DNA of 64,000 nt from positions 6,992-70,991 of the forward strand of contig CAWJVX010000001.1 in the NCBI GenBank assembly GCA_963846435.1. The letters are read 5' to 3'. This DNA comes from an uncultured Gemmatimonadales bacterium. GTDB taxonomy: Bacteria; Gemmatimonadota; Gemmatimonadetes; Gemmatimonadales; GWC2-71-9. The notes under the pieces are model-generated. The model searched no databases. It worked only from the letters and a program-made list of their open reading frames with translations, and was not told the DNA's origin. Below, one piece after another: positions 8,206 to 60,464 of the stretch; position 1 is the first letter of the stretch, and every line of letters starts with the position of its first letter. The translations under genes and the position numbers were made by a program.

Positions 8206-9234
8206 ATGGCCAACATGAGAGCGATGGTCCTGACCGGGCCGAACGAGTTGACACTCGACGAAGTCGCCAGGCCGGCAGCCGGTCGCGGCGATGTTCTGGT
8301 CAGGGTGACGCACAGCGGCATCTGCGGCACCGACTACAAGATCTTCAACGGCTCCATCCCGGTGCGTTACCCGCGCATCATGGGGCACGAGATGGCGGGA
8401 GAAGTCGTCGACGCCGGCGACAGCAGCCTGCGCGTCGGCGAGCGCGTCATCGTCGATCCGGAGCTCTATTGCGGCAACTGCTTCCATTGCCGCATCGGCC
8501 AGGCGCACCTGTGTCCGAACGGCCAACTGCTCGGGCGCGATGCCAATGGCGGGTTTGCCGAGTACCTGGCGGCGCCGAAAAGCCAGGTGTTCAGGCTGCC
8601 CGACAGCATCGGCCGGAACGCGGCGCCGATCATTCAGGTGCTGACCACCTGCCTTCACGCCCAGCGCCAGGTGGATATCTTCCCCGGCGAGTACGTGGTG
8701 GTCCAGGGGTTGGGGGTGACCGGTCAACTGCACGTGCAGCTCGCCAAGGCCCGCGGAGCCACCGTGATCGGCGTCACCCGCAGCGCCGACAAACGGGCGC
8801 TGGCCGAAACGCTGGGCGCCGACCTCACCATTCCCGGCGACGAACACGCCGTGAATGCGGTGCGCGAAGCCACCGAAGGGCGCGGCGCGGACATGGTGAT
8901 CGAAACCACCGGCTTCGTGCCGCAGCTGGCGTCCGGCATCAACATGACCCGCTCCGGCGGCCGCGTGCTGATGTTCGGCATCATCACGGCCAAGGAAGGC
9001 GCGCTGCCGTTCTACGACCTTTACTTCAAGGAAATCTCGCTCATCAACGCGCGGGTCGCCAAGAGCGAGGATTACCCGGGCGCGATCGGCCTGGTCGAGC
9101 GCGGCCTGGTGCGGCTCGAGCCGCTGATCAGCGACGTCATGCCTCTCGGGGAGCTGAAGGCGGCAATCGGGATGCTTGGTTCCGATGGCGGCGCCCAGCG
9201 CATGAAGATTGTTCTCGAACATGGAGTGAACTAA
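8206..9234 (+). CDS. Zinc-dependent medium-chain alcohol/polyol dehydrogenase
   Basis: 342-aa ORF. Motifs GICGTDYKIF, GHEMAGEVV, DPELYCGNCFHCRIGQAHLC (structural Zn), VQGLGVTGQL (Rossmann). Confidence 0.85.
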   Translation: MANMRAMVLTGPNELTLDEVARPAAGRGDVLVRVTHSGICGTDYKIFNGSIPVRYPRIMGHEMAGEVVDAGDSSLRVGERVIVDPELYCGNCFHCRIGQAHLCPNGQLLGRDANGGFAEYLAAPKSQVFRLPDSIGRNAAPIIQVLTTCLHAQRQVDIFPGEYVVVQGLGVTGQLHVQLAKARGATVIGVTRSADKRALAETLGADLTIPGDEHAVNAVREATEGRGADMVIETTGFVPQLASGINMTRSGGRVLMFGIITAKEGALPFYDLYFKEISLINARVAKSEDYPGAIGLVERGLVRLEPLISDVMPLGELKAAIGMLGSDGGAQRMKIVLEHGVN

Positions 9235-9302
9235 TTTGCGATTTGCGATTTGTGATTTGCGATTGGGTGAAATCACAAATCAAAGATCACAAATCACAAA
9301 TG
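9233..9302. repeat. Inverted tandem-heptamer hairpin element (ATTTGCG/ATTTGTG x4 versus AATCACA-type x4)
   Basis: Left arm 9233-9264, spacer gggtga, right arm 9271-9302. Most mismatches are C-A on the plus strand, i.e. G-U on the minus-strand RNA. It fills the gap from the ADH stop codon (9232-9234) to the SD/ATG of the next gene (9313). Confidence 0.85.
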
Positions 9303-9312
9303 AGGTAGAGAC

Positions 9313-9942
9313 ATGATGAAGACAATCGTGGGTATCTTGTTCGTGGGCGTTTTCCTGGTCGCGCCCTCCATGGCGAGCGCGCAGGGCGCGACGCCGATGC
9401 CAATCGAGAAGGCCGTGATTCCCGACGCCATCGCCGCGCGGACGCTGGTGAAGTACCAGCTCACCTCGACGCTGGCGCGTCAGATCGTCAATGCCTGCGT
9501 CGATTTCGCCCGCAAGCAGACGCCGAATCCCGGCAACTACGCCATCTTCGTGCTGGCCCCGAATGGCGACATCATCGACGCACACGTCATGGACGGCGTG
9601 GTCCCGATCGGCGTGGAGACCGGCCTGATGAAGGCGAAGACAGCGCTGTATGCGCGCTCCACGTCTCGGGCGGTGTCGGAGCGGTTCGCCGACGTTGAGG
9701 GTCGGCTGATTCGCACCGACCTTGGCCGTGAGCAGGGCCTGTCGTACTACTTCGTGGCCGGCGGCGTGCCAATCGTGCTGAATAACCAGCTGATTGGCGC
9801 GATCGGCGTCGGCGGCGGCAACATGGACGAGCCGTGCGCCTATGCGGCCCTCCAGCAGGTGCTCGGCATCCAGCCGCCCGCTCCCGCCGCTGCCGCGCCC
9901 GGCGCTGGTGGCGGCCGCGGCGGCCGCGGCGGCGGGCAGTAA
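9313..9942 (+). CDS. GlcG/HbpS-like (DUF336) heme-binding-family protein, secreted, with Pro/Ala then Gly/Arg tail
   Basis: Signal peptide MMKTIVGILFVGVFLVAPSMASAQG. Family motif GGVPIVLNNQLIGAIGVGGGNMDEPCA. C-terminal tail PPAPAAAAPGAGGGRGGRGGGQ. Confidence 0.75.
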   Translation: MMKTIVGILFVGVFLVAPSMASAQGATPMPIEKAVIPDAIAARTLVKYQLTSTLARQIVNACVDFARKQTPNPGNYAIFVLAPNGDIIDAHVMDGVVPIGVETGLMKAKTALYARSTSRAVSERFADVEGRLIRTDLGREQGLSYYFVAGGVPIVLNNQLIGAIGVGGGNMDEPCAYAALQQVLGIQPPAPAAAAPGAGGGRGGRGGGQ

Positions 9943-9946
9943 ATCT

Positions 9947-10047
9947 GTAGGGGGCAGGGGTTAGGGGGCAAGGGGGCAGGGCTGTCCTAGGGATCAGGCC
10001 TGATTCCTTAGACAGCCCTGCCCCCAGCCCCCTGCCCCCTCGCCCCC
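9947..10047. repeat. Long near-perfect palindrome built from GGGGCAG-like units (G-rich arm / C-rich arm)
   Basis: gtagggggcaggggttagggggcaagggggcagggctgtcctagggatcagg pairs with cctgattccttagacagccctgcccccagccccctgccccctcgccccc. Arms are about 50 nt, centred near 9998/9999. It fills the gap between stop 9940-9942 and the livH ATG at 10051. Confidence 0.9.
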
Positions 10048-10050
10048 TTC

Positions 10051-10905
10051 ATGACCTACGTCATCGTCCAGACGCTGAATGGGTTGTTTTCCGCAGCCCT
10101 CCTGTTCCTGATCGCGAGTGGTCTGACCCTCGCCTTCGGCGTTATGAAGATCGTCAACATCGCGCATGGGTCGTTCTACATGCTCGGTGTGTACGTCGCC
10201 TACAGCGTGATCCTGCGGACGCAGAGCCTCCTGCTCGGCGCCGTCGTCGCCATGCTCGTCGTCGGCGCCGTGGGCTTCGTCATGCAGCGCTTCTTCCTGC
10301 GCCGGTTTGGAAACGACCCGCTCGCCCAGATGATGATGACGATGGGGTTTGCGTTGCTGTTCAGAGACGCGGCGTTGATGATCTGGGGTGGAGATCCATT
10401 CACACTGCAGTACCCGGGACCGCTGCGTGGATCGCTGGAAGCCGGCGATGTCGTGTTCCCGTTTTACCGGTTGTTCGTGATCGTCGTGGCCGCGCTGGTC
10501 GGCGTGGCGCTCTGGGCGGTCAACGAGAAGACGCTGATTGGCGCGCGCCTGCGCGCCACCGTGGACGACCCGGAAATGGCGTCAGCCACCGGGATCAACG
10601 TGGCGCGGCTGTCGGGCCTGGTGTTCGCGGCGGGGGCCGCGCTTGCCGCGTTCGGGGGCGTGATGGGCGGCCCCATCCTCGGCGGCTACGCGGGCATCGA
10701 TTTCGACCTGCTCCCGCTGGCGTTCGTCGTGGTGATCATCGGCGGCATGGGCAGCTTGAAGGGCGCACTGGTCGGCAGCATCGTCGTCGGCATGATCGAC
10801 AACTTCGGCAAGGCGCTCGCCCCTGAGCTGTCGTACTTCACGCTGTTCGCGCCGATGGTGGTCGTGCTGGCGGTCAAGCCGACCGGGTTGTATGGACGTG
10901 CGTAG
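10051..10905 (+). CDS. livH: Branched-chain amino acid ABC transporter permease (LivH family)
   Basis: 284-aa polytopic ORF. Typical LivH start (QTLNGLFSAALLFLIASGLTLAFGVMKIVNIAHG) and GGMGSLKGALVGS near the C-terminus. Confidence 0.85.
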   Translation: MTYVIVQTLNGLFSAALLFLIASGLTLAFGVMKIVNIAHGSFYMLGVYVAYSVILRTQSLLLGAVVAMLVVGAVGFVMQRFFLRRFGNDPLAQMMMTMGFALLFRDAALMIWGGDPFTLQYPGPLRGSLEAGDVVFPFYRLFVIVVAALVGVALWAVNEKTLIGARLRATVDDPEMASATGINVARLSGLVFAAGAALAAFGGVMGGPILGGYAGIDFDLLPLAFVVVIIGGMGSLKGALVGSIVVGMIDNFGKALAPELSYFTLFAPMVVVLAVKPTGLYGRA

Positions 10906-11563
10906 GCTGGTGATCGTCGCGCTGGCGGTTGTGCTGCTGGTCGCGCCGTTCGCGTTCTCGTCCTACTGGGTGGGGCTGCTCACCGAGATCACGATCCTGG
11001 CGATGCTGGCGATGAGCCTTGACATCCTGCTCGGATACACCGGGCTGCCGTCGCTCGGCCACGCGTCGCTTTTTGGCGTCGCAGCCTACGCCGTGGGAGT
11101 GTTCTCGACCACCTACCAGATGGGATTCTGGAGCTGCGTGCTCGGCGGCATCGTCGTCGGCGTCCTGCTGAGCGCTGCGATCGGGCTGGTCGTCTCGCAC
11201 GTCAGGGACGTGTATTTCCTGATGATCACGCTGGCCATTGGCATGGTGTTGTGGGGTCTGAGCTACCGGTGGATCCCCGTGACGGGCGGAGACAACGGGC
11301 TGAGCGGGATCCCGCGGCTCGAACTTCACGCCGGCCTGCCTTTTGCGGGACCGAACACGTTCTACTACATCGCCCTGACGGTGTTTGCGGTGTCAGCGCT
11401 GGCGATCGCGATTCTCGTCCGATCGCCGTTCGGGCTGACGCTGCGTGGGATTCGTGAGAACGAAGCGCGGATGAAGAGCCTCGGCTTCAACACCTGGCTG
11501 CATTGCTATCTGAGCTTCATCGTGTCCGGGTTTTTCGCCAGCGTGGCCGGCATCCTGTGGTGA
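10892..11563 (+). pseudogene. livM: Branched-chain amino acid ABC transporter permease (LivM family), 3'-truncated
   Basis: Motifs ILLGYTGLPSLGHASLFGVAAY and LRGIRENEARMKSLGF are typical. The ORF stops at 223 aa, about 90-100 residues short of the usual C-terminus. No livG/livF follows, and unrelated sequence begins right after. Confidence 0.7.
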
Positions 11564-11574
11564 TACACCCCGAT

Positions 11575-12215
11575 AATGCTGGCCACCAGCGCCTACCTCG
11601 AGCCGGAGGCCGAGGCGGGCTTCAACGCGGTCGATGGCCCGGCGAGCCGACCGGCCAGGCCGAAGCCCATCATCGCCGCCCGCGACCCCCGGTGACGTCG
11701 ACCTGGTCGTCGACGTCGGTGGTGCGGGAACGGTGCGCTGCTGGAGGCCCTGGCCGACCCAGGGAGCCGCGGCTCCGCGGCCTCTGGGCGAACTCCGGCG
11801 GGACGTCGCGGCCGAGGCGGCACAGCGGATGGCGGCGGCCGGTCTCGCAGACCGCCGCAACACCGCCGTTGCCGACTTCTTCGCGCGTGTGCCCGGGGGC
11901 GGAGACGCCTACGTCCTGGTCCAGCATCCTCCACGACTGGGGCGACGACGACTGTCTCCGCATGGGGCGGGGTCGGCGGCACGCCGCGATGGCGCCGGGC
12001 ACTGGGTTGGCGAGGATCTTGGAGAAGGTCCTGGACCCCGACCCCGCGCGTCCCGCGCGGGAGCAGGCCGAGCTGCACCTCGTCGACCTGCACATGCTGG
12101 TGCTGTTCGCGGGTTGCGCACGCAGCTCCGACGAGTACGCCGCCCGGCCACCAAGGCCGGGTTCGACCCGCCCGTCGTGCACGCGCCTGTCCGCTCCCTG
12201 GAACACCATTCAGCT
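11575..12215 (+). pseudogene. Class I SAM-dependent O-methyltransferase (Methyltransf_2-like) fragment, lacks N-terminus, several frameshifts
   Basis: Motifs are scattered over three frames: YLEPEAEAGFNAV, DLVVDVGGAGT, AAAGLADR..VADFFARVPGGGDAYVL, ILHDWGDDDCLR, AELHLVDLHMLVLFAG..SSDEY. Local GC is visibly higher than in the flanks. Confidence 0.55.
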
Positions 12216-12291
12216 TGACCCGTCCGTCGATTACGACGGGTCAGCGTGTGGGTGTACGCATGTTCACTGAAACGGGCTAGCGTGCGCCGCC

Positions 12292-12745
12292 ATGACCACG
12301 ACTCGTGCCGAGCAGCCGGCGGTACCCGGCCTCGCCCGCAGGCGCTCTCCCGCGGCTGTCCGAGGTGGCCGACGAGCTGGTCGCGCGCACGGGCGGGACA
12401 GATCCAGCTCCTCGGTGGTCGCGGACCGCGTCCAGAGGATCACCCGGCGCGGCTGGCCCTGGCGCTCGGTGCGCCGAGCTGCCACGGGGTCCACCGGGGC
12501 ATCGCGGCCGCGGTGTACGGCGGCCTCAGCCTCGGCCTGCGCGCCGCGTCGGCCGGGCTGGACAAGGTGGCCGCGACCGGCACCAGCCCTCGGCTGGAGG
12601 GTGATGCCCGCGGCCGGTTCGTCAGCTCGGCCGTGAACGGCCTGATCGGGGACCGGCTGGTCCGGCAGCTGCTGCGCAGCTGGCGATCCCAATGGCGGTG
12701 CGGGCGCACGGGAGCGACGTACCCCTGGCATGACCTTGCTGCGCT
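12292..12745 (+). pseudogene. Fragmentary ORFs resembling the N-terminal region of an actinobacterial-type alpha/beta hydrolase (tentative)
   Basis: Peptide GVHRGIAAAVYGGLSLGLRAASAGLDKVAATGTSPRLEGDARGRFVSSAVNGLIGDRLVR, then LAIPMAVRAHGSDVPL in another frame. Assigned from memory of the family only. Confidence 0.3.
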
Positions 12746-16632: not shown

Positions 16633-18456
16633 GTGACCACTCCCGTCATACCAGAAGAACTCCAACGGAAACTCGACACGCTTCCGGAAGGGCCCGGTGT
16701 GTACCTCTGGCGAGGTAGTGACGGGGAGGTGTTGTACGTTGGAAAGGCTAAGCGTCTCCGCAACAGAGTCCGCAGTTACTTCGCCACCGATTTTCCGGAT
16801 AGCCCCAGGAACCGTCTGCTCCAACGGCTCATCGCCAACGTGGATACAATCGTCGTGCCGAGCGAGGCCGGCTCGCTCATTCTGGAGAACAATTTCATCA
16901 AGGAGTACCGGCCCCGGTTCAACGTCCGGCTGAAGGACGACAAGAGCTATCCATCCATCGCGGTGACGCTGGGTGAGCCCTTTCCCCGGGTGCTGGTGAC
17001 GAGAAAGCGCGACATTGCCGGCGCCCGCTATTTCGGGCCCTACACCGACGTGGGACAGCTGCGGCGGACGCTGGCGATTATCCGCCGGCTCTACACCGTC
17101 CGGAGCTGCCAGGACAAGTTGCCGGAGGAGCGCCGCCAGCGGCCCTGTCTGGACTTCTACATCGGACGCTGCCGCGCTCCCTGCATGGGCTGGCACGATT
17201 TGCCCGACTACCAACGCATGGTCACCGACGTGGTCGAGTTTCTCGAGGGCAGGACCCAGGATGTCCGGGTCCGGGTCCGGCAGGCGATGCTCGAGGCCAG
17301 TGAACGGGAGGACTTCGAGCGGGCTCGGGAGATGAGAGACGCGCTCCGTTGGCTGGACCGGCTCGACGAGCCGGCGAGCGTCGAGGTAATGGGGACTGGC
17401 GACGCCGATGTGATCGGTTATGCCCGAGACGGGGACGACGCCGTTGGAGTTCTCATCCGCGTTCGCAGCGGCCGGGTGGTTGCACGGGAGCACCGATTCC
17501 TCGAGGGGGTCGAGGAGGAGGAGGACAGCGCTGTGCTGAGCGCGTTCCTGGTGCGCTACTACGTCCCGGTCGAAGGCCGGGTTCGCCGGCTGGTCATCCC
17601 CCTGCCTCCGGACGAGTGGGATACCCTGCGCGAGCTGCTCCCGGACACCGATTGGCTGGTGCCCCAGCGTGGGACGGCCCAACGCTGGCTGGAGCTGGCG
17701 GATCAGAACGCCAGGCATCTGATGGAGAGCCTGCGGATCGAGTCGTTTGAAACCGAGGAGAGAGCGGAGGATCCGGTCTACTCACTGGGTCGCGACCTCG
17801 GGCTCAGCATCGTTCCTCGCAGCTTCGTCTGCGTGGACATCTCCCACAATCAGGGTCGGGACACGGTGGGCTCGCTGGTATGGTTCGAAGCGGGCCGGCC
17901 GCGGAAGAGCGAGTACCGCAAGTTCAAGATCAAAGGGGTTGGCCAGCAGGATGATTACGCCGCGATTCAGGAGGTCCTGACCCGCTACCTGACTCGACGG
18001 CGCGACGAGCAGCTGCCGTTTCCGGATCTGATCGTGATCGACGGTGGTAAGGGGCAGCTCAGCGCCGCGATCGAGGCGACCACGCAGCTCGGCCTGCCGG
18101 AGCTGCCGATCGTGAGCCTGGCCAAGCGGGAGGAGGAGGTCTTCCTTCCTGGCCGCGCCGACAGCCTGCGCCTCCCGCGCCGCAGCCCCTCGCTTCGGCT
18201 GCTTCAGCGGGCCCGAGACGAGGCGCATCGATTCGGGCTGGCCTACAACCGGAAGCGGCGGACCCAGCGCACAATCACATCCGAGCTGCTCAGCATCCCC
18301 GGTGTCGGTCCCACCAAGCGTCGCCGGCTCCTGGAGCGTTTTGGCAGCCTGGCGGGCGTCAGATCGGCTTCTGTTGGCGAGGTCGCCTCGGTGCCTGGGT
18401 TTTCAACCCGCCTGGCAGAACGAATTCTGGAGCATCTGAAGGCGAACGGGCGATAA
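16633..18456 (+). CDS. uvrC: Excinuclease ABC subunit C
   Basis: GIY-YIG motif GVYLWRGSDGEVLYVGKAKRLRNRVRSYF, UVR domain, endonuclease domain and C-terminal HhH (LLSIPGVGPTKRRRLLERFGSL). Confidence 0.95.
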   Translation: MTTPVIPEELQRKLDTLPEGPGVYLWRGSDGEVLYVGKAKRLRNRVRSYFATDFPDSPRNRLLQRLIANVDTIVVPSEAGSLILENNFIKEYRPRFNVRLKDDKSYPSIAVTLGEPFPRVLVTRKRDIAGARYFGPYTDVGQLRRTLAIIRRLYTVRSCQDKLPEERRQRPCLDFYIGRCRAPCMGWHDLPDYQRMVTDVVEFLEGRTQDVRVRVRQAMLEASEREDFERAREMRDALRWLDRLDEPASVEVMGTGDADVIGYARDGDDAVGVLIRVRSGRVVAREHRFLEGVEEEEDSAVLSAFLVRYYVPVEGRVRRLVIPLPPDEWDTLRELLPDTDWLVPQRGTAQRWLELADQNARHLMESLRIESFETEERAEDPVYSLGRDLGLSIVPRSFVCVDISHNQGRDTVGSLVWFEAGRPRKSEYRKFKIKGVGQQDDYAAIQEVLTRYLTRRRDEQLPFPDLIVIDGGKGQLSAAIEATTQLGLPELPIVSLAKREEEVFLPGRADSLRLPRRSPSLRLLQRARDEAHRFGLAYNRKRRTQRTITSELLSIPGVGPTKRRRLLERFGSLAGVRSASVGEVASVPGFSTRLAERILEHLKANGR

Positions 18457-18488
18457 GTCCCTGCTGTTCCGCCTTACCGCCTTACCGT
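18439..18488. repeat. Weak member of the tandem-repeat hairpin family (CCGCCTTA x2 with partial upstream complement)
   Basis: ccgccttaccgccttaccgtc (18469-18488) is partly complementary to aaggcgaacgggcgataag (18439-18457), which encodes the last uvrC codons and stop. About 11/17 pairs only. Confidence 0.35.
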
Positions 18489-18503
18489 CTATATTCTAAG
18501 TCT

Positions 18504-29351: not shown

Positions 29352-29734
29352 CCACCACCCGACCAGTCCAGGAGTTTTACTCGATCGGCGAGGTCTGTGC
29401 GCTGACCGACCTGAAGCCGCACGTCCTGCGCTACTGGGAAAGCCAGTTCCGCTTCCTGAACCCGGCGAAGAACCGTTCGGGCAACCGGGTGTACAAGGGA
29501 CGCGAGGTGGAGCTGATCATGCTGGTGAAGCATCTGCTTTATACCGAGAAGTTCACCATCGACGGCGCCCGCCAGCGGATCGACCACTACCGCCGCACCG
29601 GCGAGCTCCGGGTCTCGGCCAGACGCGCATTCGAGACGGAGATGGCCCAGGAGGTCCGCACCACGCTGGAGGAGGTGGTGGGGATTCTTGATGGTAAGCC
29701 GGTCCCGCAGAAAAGCGTGAACAGTGAACCGTGA
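29342..29734 (+). CDS. MerR-family HTH transcriptional regulator
   Basis: FYSIGEVCALTDLKPHVLRYWESQFRFLNPAKNRSGNRVYKGREVE. The ATG at 29348 (ATGA overlap with the gpsA stop) is an alternative start. The last 6 codons and the stop lie inside the repeat arm 29716-29748. Confidence 0.8.
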   Translation: MEMTTTRPVQEFYSIGEVCALTDLKPHVLRYWESQFRFLNPAKNRSGNRVYKGREVELIMLVKHLLYTEKFTIDGARQRIDHYRRTGELRVSARRAFETEMAQEVRTTLEEVVGILDGKPVPQKSVNSEP

Positions 29735-29784
29735 ACCGTGAACGGTCGGTTGAACCCGCTTACCGTTCACCGTTTACCGTTCAT
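29716..29784. repeat. Inverted tandem-heptamer hairpin element (GTGAACN x4 versus CCGTTNA x4)
   Basis: gtgaacagtgaaccgtgaaccgtgaacggtcgg / ccgcttaccgttcaccgtttaccgttcat, about 21/29 pairs. It spans the merR stop (29732-34) and ends 17 nt before the surE ATG. Confidence 0.8.
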
Positions 29785-29801
29785 GTTTATCTTCCGCGAC
29801 G

Positions 29802-30551
29802 ATGAACATCCTCGTGAGCAACGATGACGGTGTGCTGGCCCCCGGGCTGGCGCTCCTCGCCGACGTCTGCCGGGAGGTCGGAAACGTCACTGTGGTGGCT
29901 CCCGATCGGGAGCAAAGCGGTACGTCTCACTCGCTCACCCTGCACCGCCCGCTCCGGCCCACCCGGCGCCCCGACGGGGGCTGGCAGATCGATGGCACTC
30001 CCACTGATTGCGTCATGCTCGCCCTCCAGGCGCTCATGCCCGAGCGGCCAGACTTCGTATTTTCCGGCGTCAACCACGGCCCCAACATGGGCGAGGACGT
30101 GCTCTATTCGGGCACCGTCGCCGCGGCTATGGAGGCGGTGACGCTGGGCGTTCCCGGCATCGGCATCTCCTTCGCGGGCAACCAGCCGGAGACGATGGCC
30201 ACCTATCGGGAGCTACTGCTGGAGCTGGTCCGGCGAATTACCCAGGTGCGCGACTTTCCGGAGCAGATGCTGCTCAACATCAACTTTCCCAGAATCCCGG
30301 CGTCGGAGGTCAAGGGCATCCAGGTCACCAAGCTGGGAAGCCGCTACTTTTCCGAGTCGCTGACCCGGATGAAGGATCCGTGGGGCCGGGAGATCTTCTG
30401 GATCGGAGGTGGCACCATCACCTGGACCGGCGGGGAGAACTCCGACCACCTCGCCGTGGCCGAAGGCTACGTCTCGGTCACTCCGCTGCACATGGATCTC
30501 ACCAACTACTCTTTGCTGGAAACGGTTCGAGGATGGTCGCTGGAGGGGTAG
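29802..30551 (+). CDS. surE: 5'/3'-nucleotidase SurE
   Basis: MNILVSNDDGVLAPGL, SGVNHGPNMGEDVLYSGTVAAAMEA. Confidence 0.93.
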   Translation: MNILVSNDDGVLAPGLALLADVCREVGNVTVVAPDREQSGTSHSLTLHRPLRPTRRPDGGWQIDGTPTDCVMLALQALMPERPDFVFSGVNHGPNMGEDVLYSGTVAAAMEAVTLGVPGIGISFAGNQPETMATYRELLLELVRRITQVRDFPEQMLLNINFPRIPASEVKGIQVTKLGSRYFSESLTRMKDPWGREIFWIGGGTITWTGGENSDHLAVAEGYVSVTPLHMDLTNYSLLETVRGWSLEG

Positions 30552-44960: not shown

Positions 44961-45917
44961 TCAGTCCCGGACGTCGAGCTTCTCGAGCCGAGCGAGATCG
45001 CGGGCGATCTCCCGTGTCTCCTCGCGCATTCCGGCGATTATCTCCCCCAGAAAGCCGAACCCGAACAGGACGATGCCGCTGATCACCATCATTTCGACCA
45101 GATTCAGCAGCGGCCGGAGCCCGATACCGTAGCCGAATCGGAGCACCAGGGCCACAATGCCCGCCAGGAGGCCGATGACGAAGAGAATGGCGCCGCCGAC
45201 ACCGAAGAACAGCATCGGTTTGCGGCCGAACCGGAGCTGGAACCAGACCGAGATCAGATCGAACAGCCCGACCGGTATGCGCTTCCAGTTGAACTTCGAG
45301 ATGCCGGCCCGGCGCGGGTAGAGCGGAACCGGCAGCGACATCAGCCGATAGCCGTCGGCCGCGGCGATCACGACCATGTAGCGATGCCAGTCGGGGCGGA
45401 GCGGAACACCCAGCATGACCTCCCGCCGGTACGCCTTGACTGAATTGAGATCGGTGACCCGGACGCCGAACAGCCAGCGACACAGGACGTTGTAGATGTT
45501 GGAGACGAACGCCTTCTCGTACTTGCCCTGCTTGGTGCCGGTGACGATATCGGCCCGCCCGTCCAGAATCGGCGCCACCAGCCCGGGTATGTCCTCCGGG
45601 AGATACTGGAGATCGGCCGGGTAGAACACGAACACATCGCCCCGGGCGATGTCGCCGGCCGAGCGGAGGCTGTCCGCGATCCCGCGTTGCCGGCGGTGGG
45701 TCACGACCGACAGAAACGGGTATTGCCGCTCCAGGTCGCGAAGCACCCGGTCGCTCCCGTCCCGGGAGCCGTCGTTGACGACAATCACCTCGAAGGAGAA
45801 GCCCGAAGGGCCGAGGGCTTCGGCGCAGCGCTGGAGAAACTCGGGAAGGTTGGGCGCCTCGTCCTTGGCCGGGACGAGTACGCTCACATCCAGCGTCTCG
45901 ACCGGGGCGATGGTCAT
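44961..45917 (-). CDS. Polyprenyl-phosphate glycosyltransferase (GT2, GtrB/ArnC-like, two C-terminal TM helices)
   Basis: VSVLVPAKDEAPNLP, VVNDGSRDGS, YPADLQY, then TM helices MLFFGVGGAILFVIGLLAGIVAL and MMVISGIVLFGFGFLGEII. The start overlaps the rpoN stop (ATGA). Confidence 0.88.
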   Translation of the reverse strand: MTIAPVETLDVSVLVPAKDEAPNLPEFLQRCAEALGPSGFSFEVIVVNDGSRDGSDRVLRDLERQYPFLSVVTHRRQRGIADSLRSAGDIARGDVFVFYPADLQYLPEDIPGLVAPILDGRADIVTGTKQGKYEKAFVSNIYNVLCRWLFGVRVTDLNSVKAYRREVMLGVPLRPDWHRYMVVIAAADGYRLMSLPVPLYPRRAGISKFNWKRIPVGLFDLISVWFQLRFGRKPMLFFGVGGAILFVIGLLAGIVALVLRFGYGIGLRPLLNLVEMMVISGIVLFGFGFLGEIIAGMREETREIARDLARLEKLDVRD

Positions 45918-47483
45918 ACGCGTTTCCGCATTCGCGCCGGAAGGATGCCCAGCTGGTCGCGGTACTTGGCGACCGTGCGGCGGGCGATCTGAATCCCCTG
46001 CTCCTGAAAGAGGTGGACGATCTGCTGGTCGGTGAGCGGCTTGGCGCTGTTTTCCTCGCTCACCATCTTTTCCAGCTTGGCCCGGATCGAGCGGGCGCTC
46101 GCATCTTCACCTGAGGCAGTGGAGAGCGCACTGGAGAAGAAGAACTTGAGCGGGAAGCACGCCCCGTGGGGTCTGCACGTACTTCTCATTGGTTACCCGG
46201 CTCACCGTGGACTCGTGCATGTTGATGACCTCGGCCACTTCCCGCAGGGTGAGCGGCTTGAGGTACTCGATGCCCTTCTCGAAGAAGTCGCGCTGCCGGT
46301 CGACGATGAAATTCATGACCTTCAGCATGGTCTGGCGCCGCTGCTCGATGGCCTGAATCATCCAGTTGGCGCTGTTCATCTTGGAGGCGATGAACTCGCG
46401 ATTCTCCGGGGTCATCTTTTTCTTGTCCCGGGCGATCTCCTGATAGGAGCGGCTGAGCCGAAGCCGCGGCATGCCGGTGTCGTTGAGGAACACCTGGTAG
46501 CGGGTCCCGATCTTTTCCACGATCAAATCGGGAATGATGTACCCATCGCTCTGCTGGGAGTACTTGAGCCCGGGCTTGGGGTCGAGTCGGGAAAGCTGGT
46601 CGGCGGCGGCCTGCACCGCTGCCGGCTCCACCCCGAAGCGCTTGGCCAGGTCGTTCCAGCGATGGGCGATGAGGTCGGGGAAAGTCTCCGAGACCAGACG
46701 GTAGGTGAGAGAGCTGGTATCGGCCAGCTCCACCAGCTGGATCAGCAGGCACTCCCGGAGGTCCCGCGCCCCGATGCCGGATGGATCGAGCCGCTGGATG
46801 ACGGCGAGCATCTCCTCGGCCTCTGTCATCGTGTAGAAGGGCGGGGATGACGGAGAGGACGGAGAAGGTGGAGAAGACGGAGAAGACGCGGAGGAAGGAG
46901 ACGATGCCGGGCTGGAGGCCAAGGCGGCAGCGGGCATGTCCAGGTCCTCAACCTCTCCATCCTCTCCGTCGTCTCCGGCCCTGCTGACGTGCCCCGCCAT
47001 CAACAGGTTGACCGAGTTGAGAATCTCCTCCAGCGACGCGGCCAGGTAGCCTTCCTCGTTGACGTTGCCCAGGAACTCCTCGGCCAGCAGGAGCTGGCGT
47101 GGGGTCAACACCAGCATCTGGAGCTGCTCTCGGAGGTGGTCAATCAGGTTGCGGGACTCCACCGTGACCGGTTCGGTGTACTCCAGCTGCTCGTACTGCT
47201 CCCGGGTGCCGCCCACTTCGAAGCCGTTGAGCAGGATCTCCTCCCAGTCGACCTCATCCTGCTTGTCTTTCTGCTCCTTCTCCTTCTCGGCGGTGGCGGT
47301 CGGTTCCGGGGCTTCCTCTTCCGGCTCCAGCAGCTCGAGGAAGGGGTTGGCCAGCAGCTCCTGCTTGAGATGCTGCTGCAAGTCCATCATGGGCATGTAC
47401 AGCATGTCCATGGCCTGGTACAGCCGCGGATTGACCCGCAGCTCCTGCCGCATACTGGTGTGCTGCGACAGTCCGGTTCTCAT
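45914..47483 (-). CDS. rpoN: RNA polymerase sigma-54 factor, apparent frameshift near 46157
   Basis: N-terminal region I ([33 protein letters not shown]), core-binding region, HTH ([20 protein letters not shown]) and RpoN box ARRTVAKYR in the downstream ORF 45914-46189. The join is [16 protein letters not shown]. Confidence 0.92.
46845..46980. repeat. In-frame palindromic 9-nt tandem-repeat insertion inside rpoN region II
   Basis: Arms are GACGGAGAR units (46845-46905) and CTCTCCRTC-type units (46944-46980), about 22/27 pairs in the best register. On the coding strand they encode [11 protein letters not shown] and [26 protein letters not shown]. Confidence 0.8.
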
Positions 47484-49782: not shown

Positions 49783-49962
49783 GGTAAGCTGCTGTCCGCG
49801 GCATCTGAGCCGAACGTTGCCCCCGGCGAAGTAGTTGGTGCCGGCGGAGGTTTCCTTGACGCTGCCCTGGCGGTCGACGTTGTCGATCTGGAAGACGCAC
49901 CGGTCGGACTGGCCGTACGCGAGCTGCGACCCTGGCCACGAGGAGCAGGACGGCCAGTCCGA

Positions 49963-50091
49963 GCGGGTAGGCGGGGAGGCGGGGAGGCGGGGAAGTAAAA
50001 GTATGCCGCGACGAGGCTCTTACCCAGAGCAAGCTTACCCGCTTACCCGCGTACCCGCGTACCGTCTTACCCGCTTCCCCGCTTCCCCGCG
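49963..50091. repeat. Inverted tandem-octamer hairpin element (GCGGGGAG-type versus CTTACCCG/CTTCCCCG-type)
   Basis: gcgggtaggcggggaggcggggaggcggggaag .. cttacccgcttacccgcgtacccgcgtaccgtcttacccgcttccccgcttccccgcg. It lies between the lptC stop (50092) and the lptA-homologous region. Confidence 0.8.
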
Positions 50092-50703
50092 TCATTGCTG
50101 CCCCGGCAGCAACAGGCCCTCGCCGGACACGCCCCGGGGGCGGTCGGTCACCACGTTCTTGAAGTCAGGGTCGGACCGGAAGCTGTTGCCCTCCAGGTGT
50201 TCGGCACCCCGGTCGAAGGAGAACTGCTTGTCGGTCATGATCGTGTTGGTGGCATTGTCGTAGCGCAGCGACTCGGTCGTGAGCCGGCGCCCGTCAGGTG
50301 ATACCACCCGCACGTTTCCCGTGGCCTCCATCGAACCGTCCTGCCAGCGATACGTCCCCCGGTGAGCGGTCAGCGTGGACCCCTCCGCACCCTTGAGGTC
50401 GAAGAACACCACCTTGACGTTGTGCAGCTCGGTGATCTGGGTCGGCTCGTAGTAAAACGCGGTATCGGCTTCCACCCGGCTGCGCCTGACCCCATCATTG
50501 GTCACGTAGTGGGAGAACCCCTCGAGCACCTGGTCGGCGCTGTCTGCCGCCTGCACCGTCGACGTGGGCCGGACCCCGGGGTCCTCACAGGAGAGGACGG
50601 ACAGGATGAAGAGGAACGCGGGAACGAGGGAACGAGGAAACGCGCGCCACGCTGCCCTCCCGGATTCCCTTCCCTCGCTCCGTCCTGCCCTCGTTCCCCT
50701 CAT
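50092..50703 (-). CDS. lptC: LptC-like LPS export protein (lipobox-type N-terminus)
   Basis: Position between kdsD and lptA. N-terminal anchor FLFILSVLSC. LptC-like strands (FSHYVTNDGVRRSRVEADTAFYYE.., TLTAHRGTYRWQDGSMEATGNVRVV). Confidence 0.7.
   Translation of the reverse strand: MRGTRAGRSEGRESGRAAWRAFPRSLVPAFLFILSVLSCEDPGVRPTSTVQAADSADQVLEGFSHYVTNDGVRRSRVEADTAFYYEPTQITELHNVKVVFFDLKGAEGSTLTAHRGTYRWQDGSMEATGNVRVVSPDGRRLTTESLRYDNATNTIMTDKQFSFDRGAEHLEGNSFRSDPDFKNVVTDRPRGVSGEGLLLPGQQ
50591..50701. repeat. Inverted tandem-octamer element (GGAACGAG-type versus CCCTCGTT-type) at the kdsD/lptC junction
   Basis: gaggaacgcgggaacgagggaacgaggaaacgcg .. ccctcccggattcccttccctcgctccgtcctgccctcgttcccctc. 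It encodes the first ~37 codons of the lptC ORF if ATG 50703 is used. Confidence 0.7.
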
Positions 50704-53012: not shown

Positions 53013-55428
<2,416 letters not shown>

Positions 55429-56135: not shown

Positions 56136-56144
56136 CGTTCGAAG

Positions 56145-56840: not shown

Positions 56841-56927
56841 AGACTCCGCGCTCCGTTCGTGCGGGTGATATGTTTCGCCCTACGTGACGACCTCGAAATC
56901 CGGAAAGTTTCAGCGGCAACCCCGGGG

Positions 56928-57671
56928 ATGCCCGTGATCGACGTCGATGGACTTCAGAAGCTGTATGGTGACTTCCCCGCCGTCCAGGGGCTCTCCTTCC
57001 ATGTCGGATCTGGGGAGGTCCTGGGGTTGGTGGGCCCGAACGGCGCCGGCAAGACCACCACTATCCGGAGCATCGCCGGAATCATCATCCCCAGCGCTGG
57101 GAAGATCAGGATCGCCGGCCATGACCTGGCGCAGGACCCGGTGGGCGCCAAGGCTGCCCTGGCCTTCATTCCGGATGAGCCTCATCTCTTCGAGTACCTC
57201 ACGGTCGAGGAACACCTGCGATTCGTCGGCCGGCTGTACGGCGTAGCCGACGTCAGCAATCGGATTCCGGGACTGCTCGAGGAGCTGGATCTGGCCGACA
57301 AGCGAGGCTCCCTGCCGGGGGAGCTGTCCCGGGGAATGAAACAGAAGCTGGCCATCGCCTGCGGGCTCCTCCACGAGCCCAAGGCGCTGCTGCTGGACGA
57401 ACCGCTCACCGGCCTGGATCCAGTGGGAATCCGCCGGATGAAGGCCACCATTATGCGACGGGCCGCGGCCGGGTCGGCCATCATCCTCAGCTCTCACCTC
57501 CTCCATCTGGTTGAGGAGATCTGTACCCGCCTGCTCGTCATGCAGCGGGGACGGGCGGTGGCAATCGGTACCACCGCCGAGATCATTGCCCGGCACCCGG
57601 AGCTGGGAACGCGGAGCCTGGAAGACGTGTTTCTCGCCCTCATCGGTCAGGACGAGGGCGCCGAGCGGTGA
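56928..57671 (+). CDS. ABC transporter ATP-binding protein (ABC-2/DrrA-like)
   Basis: [45 protein letters not shown]. Start taken at ATG 56928, not the ORF-track 56406. Confidence 0.92.
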   Translation: MPVIDVDGLQKLYGDFPAVQGLSFHVGSGEVLGLVGPNGAGKTTTIRSIAGIIIPSAGKIRIAGHDLAQDPVGAKAALAFIPDEPHLFEYLTVEEHLRFVGRLYGVADVSNRIPGLLEELDLADKRGSLPGELSRGMKQKLAIACGLLHEPKALLLDEPLTGLDPVGIRRMKATIMRRAAAGSAIILSSHLLHLVEEICTRLLVMQRGRAVAIGTTAEIIARHPELGTRSLEDVFLALIGQDEGAER

Positions 57672-57676
57672 TCCGC

Positions 57677-59390
57677 ATGTTCGGCTACCTGGTCTGGCGC
57701 TCGGCGTACAACCGGGTTGCCCGCCAGCTCGGCCACCTGCGCAGCCCGAGATACTTAGCCGCGCTCCTGCTGGGGCTGGCGTATCTCTGGTTCATGGTCC
57801 TGGCGCAGCGGCCCGGCCCCCGTGGCCGGCGGGCTGGCTGACCCCCGTTGGCTCGAGCTGGTCGGCGCTCTCGGCTTACTGGGCGTGGTGGCGTGGGGCT
57901 GGATCTTCGGCGTCGAGCGGCGGGTGCTCGCCTTCAGTCCGGCCGAGGTCACCTTTCTGTTCTCGGGTCCGGTCTCCCGCCGAGGGCTGATCCAGTTCAA
58001 GCTGCTTCGCACCCAGCTCCTCATCCTTTTCAATGCCCTCCTGTGGACCTTGATCCTGTCCCGCGAGCGCTTCGGGGTCTCACCCTGGCTCCGGGTCATT
58101 TCGATCTGGGTGCTGCTGACGACGGTGTCGTTTCACCGGCTGGGAGCATCCTTCGTTCGCACCAGTCTATCCGAGCATGGTCGGCTGGGCGTGCGGCATC
58201 GAGTCGTCTCGCTCGTCGTGTTGGGGATCATGCTGATCGCCCTGACCTGGAGCATTGCCGAGGCGCTGCCCCGGTTGGCCGGGGCCGAGGCGCGGACACT
58301 GACGGGGTTCCTGTCGGTGCTGGGGGAGGCCGCGGCACAGCCGATTCCGACGGCCCTGACCTACCCGTTCCGGGTGATGATCCGACCACTTACCGCCCAC
58401 AACGCTTCCGAGTGGCTCCACGCCTTGTGGCCGGCGTTAGCACTACTGGTGCTCCATTACGTCTGGGTGGTGCGCTCCGATACCGCCTTCGAGGAGGCCG
58501 CCGCCGCGGTGTCTCTTCAGCAGGCTCAGGCCCTATCGGAGCGACGGGCCGGGCGCGCCGCCCCGCTCGCCCCGGGCCGGATCACTCCGACCTGGTTTCG
58601 GCTGGCGCCCCGGGGCTGGCCCGCCGGGGCCATTCTCTGGAAGAACCTGGTGGCCATCACTCGGACCCAGCGGGTGAGGAATGTCGCGGTTGTCCTGGGG
58701 ATCGGAGGGGTGGTCGTGTCCGCCCTCTCGTTCGAGCCGGAGGGATCGCTGGCTGGGATCGCCGGGTGGTTCGCGATCATCTGGGCCGGCGCCATGACGG
58801 TCATCGGGCCACAATGGGTACGCAACGATCTCCGGGGCGACCTGTTGAAGCTCGATCTGCTCCGGACCTACCCGGTGCGGGGCTGGTCGGTGGTCATCGC
58901 TGAGGTCGGCGCATCCGCGCTGGTGCTGACCGTAATTCAGCTGACGCTTTTCGTGATCGGCTACCTGGCCTTCCTTGGTAACCGGTCAATGACGATGCTG
59001 CTGGAAGAGCGCACTCTGGCGCTCCTCGCAGCCTTCGTGTTTCTCCCCGGCATCAACCTGCTGGGCATGATCATCCAGAACGGTGCGGCCTTGCTCTACC
59101 CTGCCTGGGTGCATCTCGGGTCGGGCCGGCCCGCCGGCGTGGAAGCCCTGGGACAGAACATGTTGATGATGGTGGTGTTCGTGGCCTTGCTCGGCGCGAC
59201 CCTGCTGTTGCCGGTGGCGGTTGGTGGAGGTGCCTATCTGCTGCTGCATGGTGCGATCAACGGCTGGGCGGCCCTTCCTGCCACGGGGCTGGTACTCGCA
59301 ATCATAGCATTCGAAGCCGCCCTGCTCGTCGAGTGGCTCGGTCGGGTCTTCGAGCGAACCGACCCCGCGTCGGCCGGTATCGGGGGGTGA
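57677..59390 (+). CDS. Polytopic membrane protein resembling the 'putative ABC exporter' family, apparent frameshift at C5 run 57817-57821
   Basis: A short ORF (MFGYLVWRSAYNRVARQLGHLRSPRYLAALLLGLAYLWFMVLAQRPGP) continues in the frame of ORF 57822-59390. About 10+ TM helices. Start coupled to the ATPase stop. Confidence 0.6.
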
Positions 59391-59393
59391 AGA

Positions 59394-59503
59394 GGCTATT
59401 GGCTATGGGCTATGGGCTATGGGCGATCGGAAAAGAAACCCTCCGGTTCGGAGGGTCTCAGAGTTCGGAGCAGCCAATAGCCAGTAGCCAATGGCCAACA
59501 GCC
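59394..59503. repeat. Inverted tandem-heptamer hairpin element (GGCTATG x5 versus CCAATAG-type x4) with inner 8-bp stem-loop
   Basis: ggctattggctatgggctatgggctatgggcgatcgg .. accctccg-gtt-cggagggt .. gcagccaatagccagtagccaatggccaacagcc, about 25/34 outer pairs. It fills the gap between convergent stops at 59390 and 59507. Confidence 0.85.
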
Positions 59504-59506
59504 TGT

Positions 59507-59989
59507 TCAGCTCGGGCCGGTGCCGCCCATGGGCTTGGCATCCGGCAGCAGGCGGCGGACTTCCCGGTCCAGCGCGGACAGGGACTCGTTCACACTCCGC
59601 TTGGCCTCGTCCCAGTTACGGTCGGTGGCGGCAGCGAGGCCGTCCAGATCGCGGCTTACCGCTTTGCGGGCCGCGCGGACGTTCACGATGGCGCTATCCC
59701 GGGCGTGGTCGACGCCCCGCTTGGTATCGCGCTCGATCCCGGCGATTTGCTCGTCGAGCTTCTTAAGCTGCAGGTCGAGGTCGCGCCGAAAATCGTTCCG
59801 CTGCTCATAGCTGTAATCCCGGGCCTCCCGCGCCTCCTCCCGAACCTCTTCGGCGCCCTCCCGAGTCTCCGCTCGCACGTCCGCGGCGACTGAATCCACC
59901 TTGCTCGCCGTCTCCTGACGATCGCGCGGACTGCAAGCAAATGCAGTTGCCATCAGCACCGCCGCAGCGGCACAGGTGATCTGCCTCAT
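59507..59989 (-). CDS. Lipoprotein of unknown function, charged helical repeats
   Basis: Lipobox AAAAVLMATAFAC and a good SD (aggagg) 6 nt upstream. E/R/D-rich helical sequence. Confidence 0.6.
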   Translation of the reverse strand: MRQITCAAAAVLMATAFACSPRDRQETASKVDSVAADVRAETREGAEEVREEAREARDYSYEQRNDFRRDLDLQLKKLDEQIAGIERDTKRGVDHARDSAIVNVRAARKAVSRDLDGLAAATDRNWDEAKRSVNESLSALDREVRRLLPDAKPMGGTGPS

Positions 59990-60135
59990 GTCGTTCCTCC
60001 TAGTCCGTCCGTTTGGTATGGCGTTGGAGTACGGAACAGGATAACCGTGGAGGGGGGATTACAGAGGTGACCTAGCTCACCGGAGGTGGTCCAGCGCGAG
60101 CCTTGGGACGTAATAGGGTGCCGCTGACACGTTTA

Positions 60136-60460
60136 CCACTAAGGGACAAAGACCACAAAGGGCCACTAAGGGTAAGAGAAGTCACCACCCATTAAGGACT
60201 CGCCTGAAGCCTTCTCTCAAGGAATTGACGTTGAAGTTGATGAGAAGACCCAGCCAAAGGTCCTGAAGTCGGAGATATGTTAAAAGTTGTGCGGTATGAA
60301 TGGAAATTAGTCTGTCGACCGCTTTTACTTCAACGATGACACTTTTTTCAACCAGGCCCCATCAGACGGTGGACCTCTATTGCAGAACCAATGATCTCGT
60401 GCGACAACACCAGTGCAGACGCCTTTGTGCCCTTCGTAGTCTTCGTTCCTTCGTGGTGAA
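60136..60460. mobile_element. Hairpin-flanked element carrying a GxxExxY-family gene remnant
   Basis: Left arm ccactaagggacaaagaccacaaagggccactaaggg (60136-60177). Right arm gcctttgtgcccttcgtagtcttcgttccttcgtggtg (60421-60460) is its approximate reverse complement. The core is about 240 bp and of visibly lower GC. Confidence 0.75.
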
Positions 60461-60464
60461 CCAT
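60182..60464 (-). pseudogene. GxxExxY-family (PD-(D/E)xK-like, PDDEXK_3) protein pseudogene: frameshift plus internal deletion
   Basis: The ATG at 60464 gives MVHHEGTKTTKGTKASALVLSHEIIGSAIEVHRLMGPG*. A second frame gives GLVEKSVIVEVKAVDRLISIHTAQLLTYLRLQDLWLGLLINFNVNSLREGFRRVLNGW*. Both ends match the family pattern, but the central ~45-50 residues including the ExxY part are missing. Confidence 0.8.

Follow-up and report, generated by a model that had tools for sequence, protein, structure and literature searches.

A 64,000-nt stretch of DNA from an uncultured Gemmatimonadales bacterium (contig CAWJVX010000001.1, positions 6,992 to 70,991; hereafter the window) carries a set of hairpins built from inverted arrays of short tandem repeats, which stand at gene boundaries or, in three cases, in frame within coding sequence. 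Across the Gemmatimonadales the position and the pairing of these hairpins persist while the repeat unit turns over quickly, by concerted change within arms, compensation between arms, and gain or loss of whole units. We put at about 0.5 the probability that they are "accordion" hairpins resembling the STRR of cyanobacteria (repetitive sequences made of short tandem repeats), i.e., gene-boundary stem-loops which are lengthened and remodelled in place by slippage, have their pairing restored, and serve a punctuation-like role.

Tandem arrays were located with Tandem Repeats Finder (TRF) and paired arms by an inverted-repeat scan of the whole window. Inverted arrays of 7–9-nt tandem repeats are real at seven short loci, where TRF returned periods of 7, 7, 7, 9, 8, 8, and 7 nt with 2.9–7.2 copies, and at one locus carrying an open reading frame (ORF). 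A second, reverse-complementary array lies 5–80 nt from the first (the partner of the array at 50613–50642 being degenerate), and the same loci are the top matches of the inverted-repeat scan, with arms of 22–53 nt and a complementarity of 75–88%. The inverted tandem-repeat architecture described in the first-pass annotation of the window is thus recovered by both methods. Hairpin 1 (9234–9301, plus strand; arrays 9234–9264 and 9270–9301) comprises 4.4 copies of ATTTGCG and 4.6 of AAATCAC around a loop of 5–6 nt. Hairpin 2 (9946–10051, plus strand; 7-nt arrays 9947–9981 and 10016–10048) is a near-complete palindrome of 106 nt with five GGGGCAG-like and 4.6 CTGCCCC-like units, and hairpin 3 (29716–29783, plus strand; 7-nt arrays 29716–29743 and 29762–29783) pairs four copies of CGTGAAC with three of ACCGTTC. 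The next three lie on the minus strand: hairpin 4 (46839–46980; arrays 46849–46901 and 46952–46977), inside rpoN, has the 9-nt units GACGGAGAR and CCTCTCCGT; hairpin 5 (49962–50093; arrays 49963–49993 and 50033–50090) sets the sense-strand 8-nt units GCGGGGAA and GCGGGTAA against CTTCCCCG and CCTCCCCG; and hairpin 6 (50591–50701; array 50613–50642) is a weak member with 3.8 copies of the 8-nt unit GGAACGAG. Hairpin 7 (59394–59503, strand not assigned; 7-nt arrays 59394–59424 and 59472–59503) consists of 4.4 copies of GGCTATG and 4.6 of AGCCAAT around an inner GC hairpin, AAACCCTCCGgttCGGAGGGT. The eighth locus (60136–60460, minus strand) is the remnant of a GxxExxY gene, with an internal deletion in its ORF, between arms of the 9-nt unit CACGAAGGN. 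Stems of 7-nt units, hairpin 1 among them, hold one mismatch in each unit, as expected if a unit already holding a mismatch was multiplied.

Each locus was folded as RNA and compared with 200 dinucleotide shuffles, and the seven short loci were refolded with DNA parameters. The RNA z-scores are −7.4 at 9230–9305 (DNA, −4.2), −8.6 at 9943–10053 (−93.6 kcal/mol; DNA, −8.9), −5.8 at 29713–29787 (DNA, −4.4), −5.6 at 46839–46982 (DNA, −4.1), and −8.6 and −8.7 on the two strands of 59391–59506 (DNA, −7.6). As RNA, none of the 200 shuffles folds as well as any of these five loci, and the claim that the elements fold better than shuffled controls stands for them. Weaker values were obtained at 49960–50095 (RNA, −2.6; DNA, −3.6) and at 50588–50703 (RNA, −3.0; DNA, −0.6); the latter locus is considered weak and dependent on G–U pairs because its z-score falls to −0.6 with DNA parameters. 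The 346-nt ORF-carrying region 60125–60470 gave −3.6. The first-pass annotation had counted nine loci, of which these eight are retained. The ninth (18439–18488, plus strand), which combines 2.4 copies of CCGCCTTA with a complementary but degenerate stretch and is located in an intergenic gap of 47 nt, is doubtful: the RNA z-score of 18435–18500 is −1.9, which is not significant, and six of the 200 shuffles fold equally well. The eight loci have no unit or loop in common, and the earlier statement that the units are unrelated and without consensus therefore holds within the 64-kb window; it fails outside it, since relatives reuse units and Gemmatirosa kalamazoonensis possesses multi-copy families. 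A search of Rfam at gathering thresholds returned two tRNAs only, with nothing at the hairpin loci. As the first-pass annotation had also concluded, these are not CRISPR arrays, which have direct repeats of 24–48 nt and unique spacers: the units here are 7–9 nt, contiguous, and arranged in inverted pairs.

The compared relatives carry L numbers, L001–L160 for loci from metagenome-assembled genomes (MAGs) or metagenomes and L163, L164, L165, L169, and L170 for plasmid 1 of G. kalamazoonensis. At the kpsF–lptC junction (hairpin 6 in the window) at least 13 different 8- or 9-nt units were found in relatives with KpsF identities of 65–94%, and at the lptC–lptA junction (hairpin 5) at least seven; a hairpin is present at the same junction across lineages down to approximately 65% protein identity. 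The lptC leader of L005 is hairpin-free and codes for a plain lipoprotein signal peptide (MRRVSLLIVLSAAAALAC). Unit numbers vary at the lptC–lptA junction: two in the left arm alone in L007, four in the left arm with the right arm missing in L006, and four plus three in L044. The junction between an HbpS-like gene and a permease gene (hairpin 2) carries arrays of four unrelated units among the relatives, the variants being GGGGNAG-type, CAGTAGG or CAGTCGG around an inner GC hairpin, and CAGTTGT; L082, L085, L093, and L094 have just a plain GC hairpin with a T-rich run after it, and L097 and L099 neither hairpin nor array. On the other side of the HbpS-like gene, at its junction with an alcohol dehydrogenase gene (hairpin 1), an ATTTGCG-type hairpin occurs in the window and L089, a plain hairpin in L083/L116, and nothing in L084/L085. 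At the convergent junction of hairpin 7 a terminator-like core (AGAAACCCTCC...GGAGGGTTTCTTTT) is conserved in L004, L006, and L007 and is flanked by GGCTATT or GGCTATG arrays; the structure has collapsed in one relative, and a single arm is left in another. Arrays also flank an inner terminator-like core in L088. The comparison of orthologous junctions proposed in the first-pass annotation has, then, revealed presence/absence polymorphism (L005, L084/L085, L097, and L099). By-eye inspection of filled against empty sites (L084/L085 versus L089 and the window; L005) made no target-site duplication evident.

Covariation was examined in five orthologous lptA-leader hairpins, all 159 nt long (L002, L004, L009, L011, and L044). 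Each contains four 8-nt units of the form GCGGG[G/T][A/C]N, in which the variable positions are identical in all units of one arm and complementary in the other arm. The RNAalifold prediction contains a 32-pair helix, with changes on both sides in 10 of 41 predicted pairs. In this helix 92.4% of cells are paired, as against 83.4 ± 2.0% in shuffles, and cells with a double change number 13 where 6.6 are expected (0 of 500 shuffles reaches either value); sliding the partner by 1–3 columns reduces pairing to only 38–55%. Change at the scale of the unit is visible between close strains. L137 and L141, which are about 99% identical, differ by an 8-nt indel, about one unit, in one arm only, and L127 and L131, whose flanks are 99.7% identical, show hairpins without relation to each other at one junction; at the other, a hairpin is duplicated. 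The suggestion that structure rather than sequence is what persists is supported by the kept position with changed unit, the covarying arms, and the unit-sized indel in near-identical strains. What is duplicated between L127 (2380–2390) and L131 (1050–1090) is a GC hairpin of the plain type, upstream of the HbpS-like gene: one strain carries the whole of it (~35 nt) twice in tandem.

Gene starts were inferred from reading frames and alignments. Hairpin 1 fills the gap between the stop codon of a zinc-dependent alcohol dehydrogenase gene (9232–9234) and the GAGG plus ATG (9313) of the HbpS-like gene. Hairpin 2 extends from 4 nt past the stop codon of the latter (9940–9942) to the start codon (ATG, 10051) of a gene for a branched-chain amino-acid permease, and the HbpS-like gene is in this way flanked by hairpins on both sides. 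Directly upstream of hairpin 2 the C-terminal tail of the HbpS-like protein (9873–9935) is a Gly/Arg/Ala/Pro low-complexity region whose coding DNA consists of tandem repeats of 9 and 15 nt and which varies among orthologs in both sequence and length. Hairpin 3 lies between a MerR-family ORF, the TGA of which (29732–29734) is within the left arm, and surE (start at 29802), and hairpin 7 between convergent genes with stop codons at 59388–59390 and 59507–59509. Hairpins 1, 2, 3, and 7 touch or almost touch stop or start codons, and for these the earlier description of elements flush against codons and filling intergenic gaps is accurate; it does not apply to those at 49963–50091 and 50591–50701, which are located inside the coding leaders of an lptA-like gene and lptC.

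The latter pair belongs to a minus-strand operon with the order kpsF, lptC, lptA-like (a weak match to OstA_2), lptB, and rpoN, in which the ATG of lptC overlaps the kpsF stop codon and that of the lptA-like gene overlaps the lptC stop codon (ATGA). Hairpins 5 and 6 are not intergenic but begin a few bases past these overlapped start codons and are open in frame. Hairpin 5 starts 3 nt past the lptA-like ATG, with the frame remaining open into the signal-peptide h-region LGLAVLLLVA, and hairpin 6 spans approximately the first 37 codons of lptC, its 3′ arm coding for part of the lipoprotein signal peptide. The same two overlaps are found at about 70 loci, where the leader measures 45–70 nt without a hairpin and 90–300 nt with one. 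In some 16 of 21 hairpin-bearing lptC leaders the frame is open from the overlapped start across both arms, and in L003 the 3′ arm itself codes for the h-region (ILSVLSVLSAFSVLSC). The third in-frame copy, hairpin 4, is translated as part of a lineage-specific hypervariable insertion in the sigma-54 core-binding domain of RpoN. According to an alignment of RpoN from 30 loci the insertion is 40–90 residues long, with an acidic run followed by a run rich in Ser, Pro, and Ala; it is found in Gemmatimonadales and is missing from Longimicrobiales (L067, L070, and L079), and clean 9-nt inverted arrays occur in one subclade only. The first-pass annotation had restricted translation to copies with 9-nt units, which the 8-nt units read in the lptC and lptA-like leaders contradict. 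Codon periodicity is a trend rather than a rule: with orthologs included, arrays lie within open frames in 21 of 31 cases for 9-mers, 25/43 for 8-mers, 9/31 for 7-mers, and 1/12 for 11-mers. Two irregularities were encountered in these genes. A frameshift near 46150 splits rpoN into an ORF at 46107–47483, ending in Sigma54_DBD positions 2–85, and another at 45914–46189, which matches positions 81–160, and the lptA-like gene has one extra base in the signal-peptide region (49900–49960) relative to L001. Both are likely to be indel errors of a long-read assembly, with real pseudogenisation as the alternative.

These hairpins are a major component of the genomes concerned. The detector used required a TRF array with an ungapped reverse-complement partner, and in the control the partner was reversed but not complemented. 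The 1.26 Mb scanned (the window and 80 related loci) contained 225 tandem arrays, of which 70 had a partner at a score of 12 or more and 44 at 16 or more, whereas the control yielded 6 and 0, respectively. More than 150 hairpins were found in 2.18 Mb of Gemmatimonadota DNA, and soil metagenome contigs around the HbpS-like gene hold dozens more, with many different units; the relatives of the window, as placed by KpsF, are Gemmatimonadales MAGs. Units measure 7–9 nt in the window and up to 15 nt in relatives, with 3–7 tandem copies per arm. The finished plasmid 1 of the cultured strain G. kalamazoonensis KBS708 carries about 30 copies in positions 100–250 kb. Between 100 and 550 kb the strong copies, with a partner score of 16 or more, number about 65, or about one per 7 kb; where the flanking gene end could be assigned, nearly all are within 50 nt of a stop codon. 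An assembly artefact was considered and rejected on the grounds that the same loci turn up in MAGs that are independent of one another, from short as well as long reads, and in a finished replicon of the isolate. Hairpins do seem to break assemblies: short-read metagenome contigs L083, L086, and L087 stop at or within hairpins, and in L090 the left arm is followed by poly-C junk.

Units recur in the isolate. A family of 11-mers with 12 copies and a shared loop core has the layout (GGACTGAAGRR)n-GGACCAAACAC...-(YYCTTCAGTCC)n, and there are also families of 7-, 8-, 9-, and 10-mers. Arm similarity in the 11-mer family is modestly greater within a copy (0.74) than between copies (0.65; permutation p ~0.03). 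Two further arrangements were noted on this plasmid. Elements with long arms of 14–15-nt units (GGCGGGACGAYNGAC; L163:19972–20345, L165:21658–21993, L169:30777–31201, and L170:10141–10466) surround a core of about 120 nt (...CACCTTGGGCGAAGGGGGGGAGCCCCCCTGG.ACCTAGGTAC...) that is conserved and non-coding, without a convincing ORF, and that faces either way with respect to the arms. Nested double hairpins, in which outer CCGCAGAGGG arms surround an inner hairpin with CACAGAGGA or CACGGAGGA arms, recur at L163:12343–12511, L164:37559–37728, L164:43409–43569, and elsewhere.

The arms have a marked polarity: the 5′ arm is rich in purines or G and the 3′ arm in pyrimidines. Among the hairpins from MAGs and metagenomes the ratio is 62 cases to 8, and among the asymmetric cases of the isolate it is 42 to 2. 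This polarity is independent of the strand of the neighbouring gene in G. kalamazoonensis. That the purine-rich 5′ arm might mark an orientation with respect to transcription was considered and rejected: an inverted repeat reads alike on both strands, so the polarity is intrinsic. It is that of a bidirectional terminator, with an A-tract on the 5′ side and a T-tract on the 3′ side. One idea is that it would keep the C-rich arm unexposed until its partner has been made, on either transcript; another is that stop triplets of the form T-purine-purine would thereby come to lie in the 5′ arm. By eye, hairpin 7 looks terminator-like at its inner core, with a run of A on one border and a run of T on the other (minus strand ...GGAGGGTTTCTTTTCC), and T-rich runs form the end of the orthologous plain hairpins of L085, L082, and L093. 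G-quadruplex formation was rejected as a general explanation, as it fits arms of the GGGGCAG and GCGGGGAA types but not ATTTGCG, GTGAACC, or GGCTATG.

If the accordion reading is correct, replication slippage would expand and contract units at the base of an existing hairpin. The seed may be a terminator, an intercistronic stem, or complementary codons in the n- and h-regions of a signal peptide. Signal-peptide leaders would be natural seeds in a GC-rich genome because the n-region codons AAG CGG GGC are the reverse complement of the h-region codons GCC CCG CTT, a complementarity read directly in L007 and L044. Pairing would then be restored either by selection or by hairpin-templated strand switching of the quasipalindrome type, with the stem growing outward as its sequence drifts. 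Quasipalindrome correction is established in E. coli genetics. As to function, the hairpins could act as terminators or as punctuation of the type formed by repetitive extragenic palindromic (REP) sequences and bacterial interspersed mosaic elements (BIMEs), ending or protecting transcripts at gene borders. At the kpsF–lptC–lptA overlaps, occlusion of the start region by the hairpin may make translation dependent on coupling to the upstream cistron.

Several observations weigh against this reading. A consensus terminator scan calls nothing at 9000–10200 or at 59300–59600, the core of hairpin 7 included, and most arms are without a U-tract. A strand-choice test gave only a slight sense excess of G–U pairs, 216 versus 191 antisense, and in terms of stability the sense strand comes out ahead in 42 cases and the antisense strand in 30. 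Many of the compared loci are orthologous, and the counts given above are accordingly not counts of independent events; template switching, for its part, is proposed on the strength of what is generally known about quasipalindrome mutagenesis. Units and loops also reappear unchanged at many loci in G. kalamazoonensis, and the loop motif CAGCAACAGCACACC(N)GAG is common to two junctions 650 bp apart, lptC–lptA in L003/L004/L005 and kpsF–lptC in L006/L021/L044, where it is read in different frames. From the motif, a whole hairpin appears to have been copied between these neighbouring junctions. The recurring units and loops of the isolate, together with this motif, indicate that whole elements are also copied and that growth in place is not the sole process; a mobile component may contribute.

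Locus 60136–60460 requires separate treatment. It is a deleted ortholog of genes at L011:1989–2333 and L044:1421–1666, which match TIGR04256 (GxxExxY) with 121 and 84.6 bits against a cut-off of 35, and the decayed GxxExxY gene reported by the first-pass annotation is thereby corroborated. The window copy itself matches by tblastn only, in two pieces separated by the internal deletion. Its 5′ arm (~60424–60460) codes for the GxxExxY N-terminus MVHHEGTKTTKGTK (HEGTK...), and its 3′ arm (~60136–60172) comes after the former stop codon. Long inverted 9-nt arrays stand at both ends of the element (partner scores of 27 in L011 and 18 in L044). In L004 and L006 decay has left only a solo 3′ arm of it, and L007 lacks the element. 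By eye the element (60136–60460; L011:1916–2371) is much richer in AT than its surroundings, which have 63–70% G+C, and it adjoins a xerD-like integrase gene (60546–61463); the two features together suggest horizontal acquisition. A tblastn search of the 2.18 Mb of Gemmatimonadota DNA detected no enclosed GxxExxY gene beyond this single orthologous locus. One further GxxExxY gene, in G. kalamazoonensis, is not enclosed and has an ordinary boundary hairpin after its stop codon. The link with GxxExxY is one decaying insertion and not the source of the family.

The working hypothesis of the first-pass annotation, that the ORF-less hairpins are decayed or non-autonomous relatives of a hairpin-enclosed GxxExxY gene of PD-(D/E)XK fold, consequently appears exceedingly improbable and has already been largely refuted. 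Besides the locus just described, with its orthologs reduced to a solo arm, it can point to L134:698–813, where CACGAAG-type arms occur without an ORF; against this, one enclosed locus stands beside more than 150 hairpins, and the others have unrelated units, short loops, no ORF remnant, and in several cases terminator-like cores. A more serious rival, though still an unlikely one, is that the hairpins are mobile non-autonomous elements, similar to MITEs or to REP sequences and REPINs, which a trans-acting enzyme copies to gene borders, the units of the window representing families each sampled once. The multi-copy families of G. kalamazoonensis with shared units and loop cores, foremost the 12-copy 11-mer family, are as this rival predicts, and so are the CAGCAACAGCACACC motif at both operon junctions, the presence/absence polymorphism at orthologous sites, and the complete replacement of one junction between strains with 99.7% identical flanks. 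Yet orthologous hairpins of equal length differ only at the variable unit positions, in a compensated manner, which is divergence in place; inner cores resemble the plain hairpins of relatives; single-arm expansions and left-arm-only arrays exist (L006 and L007 at lptC–lptA; L137/L141); and filled and empty sites compared by eye lack an evident target-site duplication.

Unlikely to a similar degree is a neutral origin, in which palindromes grow and shrink by slippage and fold-back or template-switch synthesis wherever this is harmless and have no function of their own. Sites that are empty or collapsed beside retained neighbouring genes (L005, L084/L085, L044, and L001), the often unequal arms (e.g., hairpin 5), and the lack of a clear sense-strand G–U signal are what a by-product would leave, and the places occupied are tolerant ones: signal-peptide n-regions, the hypervariable RpoN linker, and intergenic gaps. 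Such an origin is harder to reconcile with compensation that keeps 92% of pairs across orthologs, although templated correction could achieve this without selection, or with recurrence at the same junction down to ~65% protein identity, and a purely symmetric DNA process does not obviously predict a polarity of 62 versus 8 and 42 versus 2. Under a further, quite improbable reading an active, structure-templated process, whether a particular replication or repair activity or a dedicated hairpin-recognising enzyme, would add units symmetrically to both arms of any suitable stem; the same process would lie behind the cyanobacterial STRR and the paired repeats of Xanthomonas and Geobacter, leaving architecture and 5′-purine polarity fixed and sequence free. 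There is very little to recommend the view that the arrays are binding sites for a DNA-binding or -bending protein of the integration host factor (IHF)/HU type, as paired repeats in Geobacter metallireducens have been read. The layout does match the opposite-strand pairs of three to five tandem 7–9-mers at variable distance in that species (PMC2700814), and CACGGAGA (L123 and L125) and the GACGGAGAR of the window are the reverse complement of its class 2 unit TCTCCGTS[Y]. A sequence-specific protein, however, cannot explain units that differ at every window locus and between close relatives, and the covariation of the arms speaks for base pairing rather than motif recognition. The accordion reading is therefore preferred over these alternatives at the probability given at the outset.

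Inverted short tandem arrays have been noted in cyanobacteria since the 1990s, and Vioque is said to have described in 1997 STRR that lengthen helix P12 of RNase P RNA, with unrelated STRR at that place in close strains, a combination of constant structure and free sequence like that reported here. The first-pass annotation knew of no description of such a system, but three precedents exist. The cyanobacterial STRR are 7-bp, hairpin-forming, intergenic tandem repeats (e.g., between hupS and hupL) of unknown function, for which roles in transcript stability, termination, or translational coupling have been proposed (PMC2670836). The hairpins resemble them in combining a short-unit tandem array of at least three copies with a nearby reverse-complement array. 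They differ in their host, Gemmatimonadota in place of heterocyst-forming cyanobacteria, and in their unit length, which is classically 7 nt in STRR and here 7–15 nt, with many units of 8 or 9. STRR are of few types genome-wide, whereas each window locus has its own unit, though G. kalamazoonensis shares units among loci; the present hairpins, furthermore, include copies residing in frame in rpoN and in coding leaders, and for them covariation and turnover at orthologous sites have been documented. CAGTTGT (L092:6658–6733 and L103:6513–6662) is a rotation of the Nostoc unit TTGTCAG, and heptamer units form 14 pairs with published STRR at no more than one mismatch where 6.8 ± 3.1 are expected, a marginal excess (p ~0.03) that is suggestive only. 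Xanthomonas genomes each contain 70–75 pairs of closely spaced, convergent GGGAATC heptamer arrays, mostly intergenic and capable of forming stem-loops; species agree in whether an array is single or an inverted pair but differ in its length (PMC4692102). That system has one genome-wide unit without locus-specific turnover and was studied as a former of G-quadruplexes, which most units here cannot form. In G. metallireducens there are three classes of opposite-strand paired sites at variable distance with three to five tandem units, namely the 8-mers GTTGCTYN, the 8/9-mers TCTCCGTS[Y], and the 7-mers MTYCTGA, found for example between proB and proA (PMC2700814). The class 2 match mentioned above falls at L123:243–302 and at 46849–46888 of the window; the three Geobacter families nevertheless have consensus sequences and were interpreted as sites for IHF/HU-type regulators without structural or evolutionary analysis.

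More distant likenesses can be drawn with three other systems. REP sequences and BIMEs, known like REPINs from enterobacteria and pseudomonads, are intergenic imperfect palindromes at the 3′ ends of genes or between cistrons, with effects on the stability of mRNA, on termination, and on how the upstream gene is translated. The hairpins share this location at gene 3′ ends and the proposed way of working, but REP sequences, BIMEs, and REPINs have a genome-wide consensus of ~20–40 nt, are mobilised by RAYT transposases, and have arms that are not tandem arrays, whereas the window copies share no consensus. Rickettsia palindromic elements are in-frame palindromic insertions in protein genes, tolerated as extra peptide. 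Hairpins 4, 5, and 6 likewise lie in frame within genes; the rickettsial elements, by contrast, are a dispersed consensus family devoid of tandem units, while units and loops here differ between loci. The intervening sequences of 23S rRNA contain a small ORF, of the four-helix-bundle or GxxExxY type, within a long stem formed by its flanks. Locus 60136–60460, L011, and L044 have the same ORF-in-stem layout, although the window element is in an intergenic spacer next to a xerD-like gene and not in rRNA, and its arms are 9-nt arrays, one of which codes for the N-terminus. In the literature on GxxExxY, on Gemmatimonadetes repeats, and on inverted tandem repeats, no description of such a hairpin family for Gemmatimonadota was found, nor did the searchable literature offer an explanation of the origin or role of inverted short tandem arrays. 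As far as could be found, the phylum, the locus-specific units, the covariation and turnover, the extended terminator-like cores, and the in-frame residence in signal peptides and RpoN are new.

For the study of such repeats this lineage offers, unlike the earlier cases, many orthologous sites with different units, with empty and plain-hairpin states, and with unit-scale steps between strains, and its in-frame copies constrain repeat change by the reading frame. The question of their origin, slippage with templated correction versus mobility, thereby becomes testable, the more so as the cultured G. kalamazoonensis holds dozens of copies. In practical terms, the hairpins lengthen the predicted N-termini of secreted proteins and add peptides to RpoN, and they may mislead the calling of gene starts.

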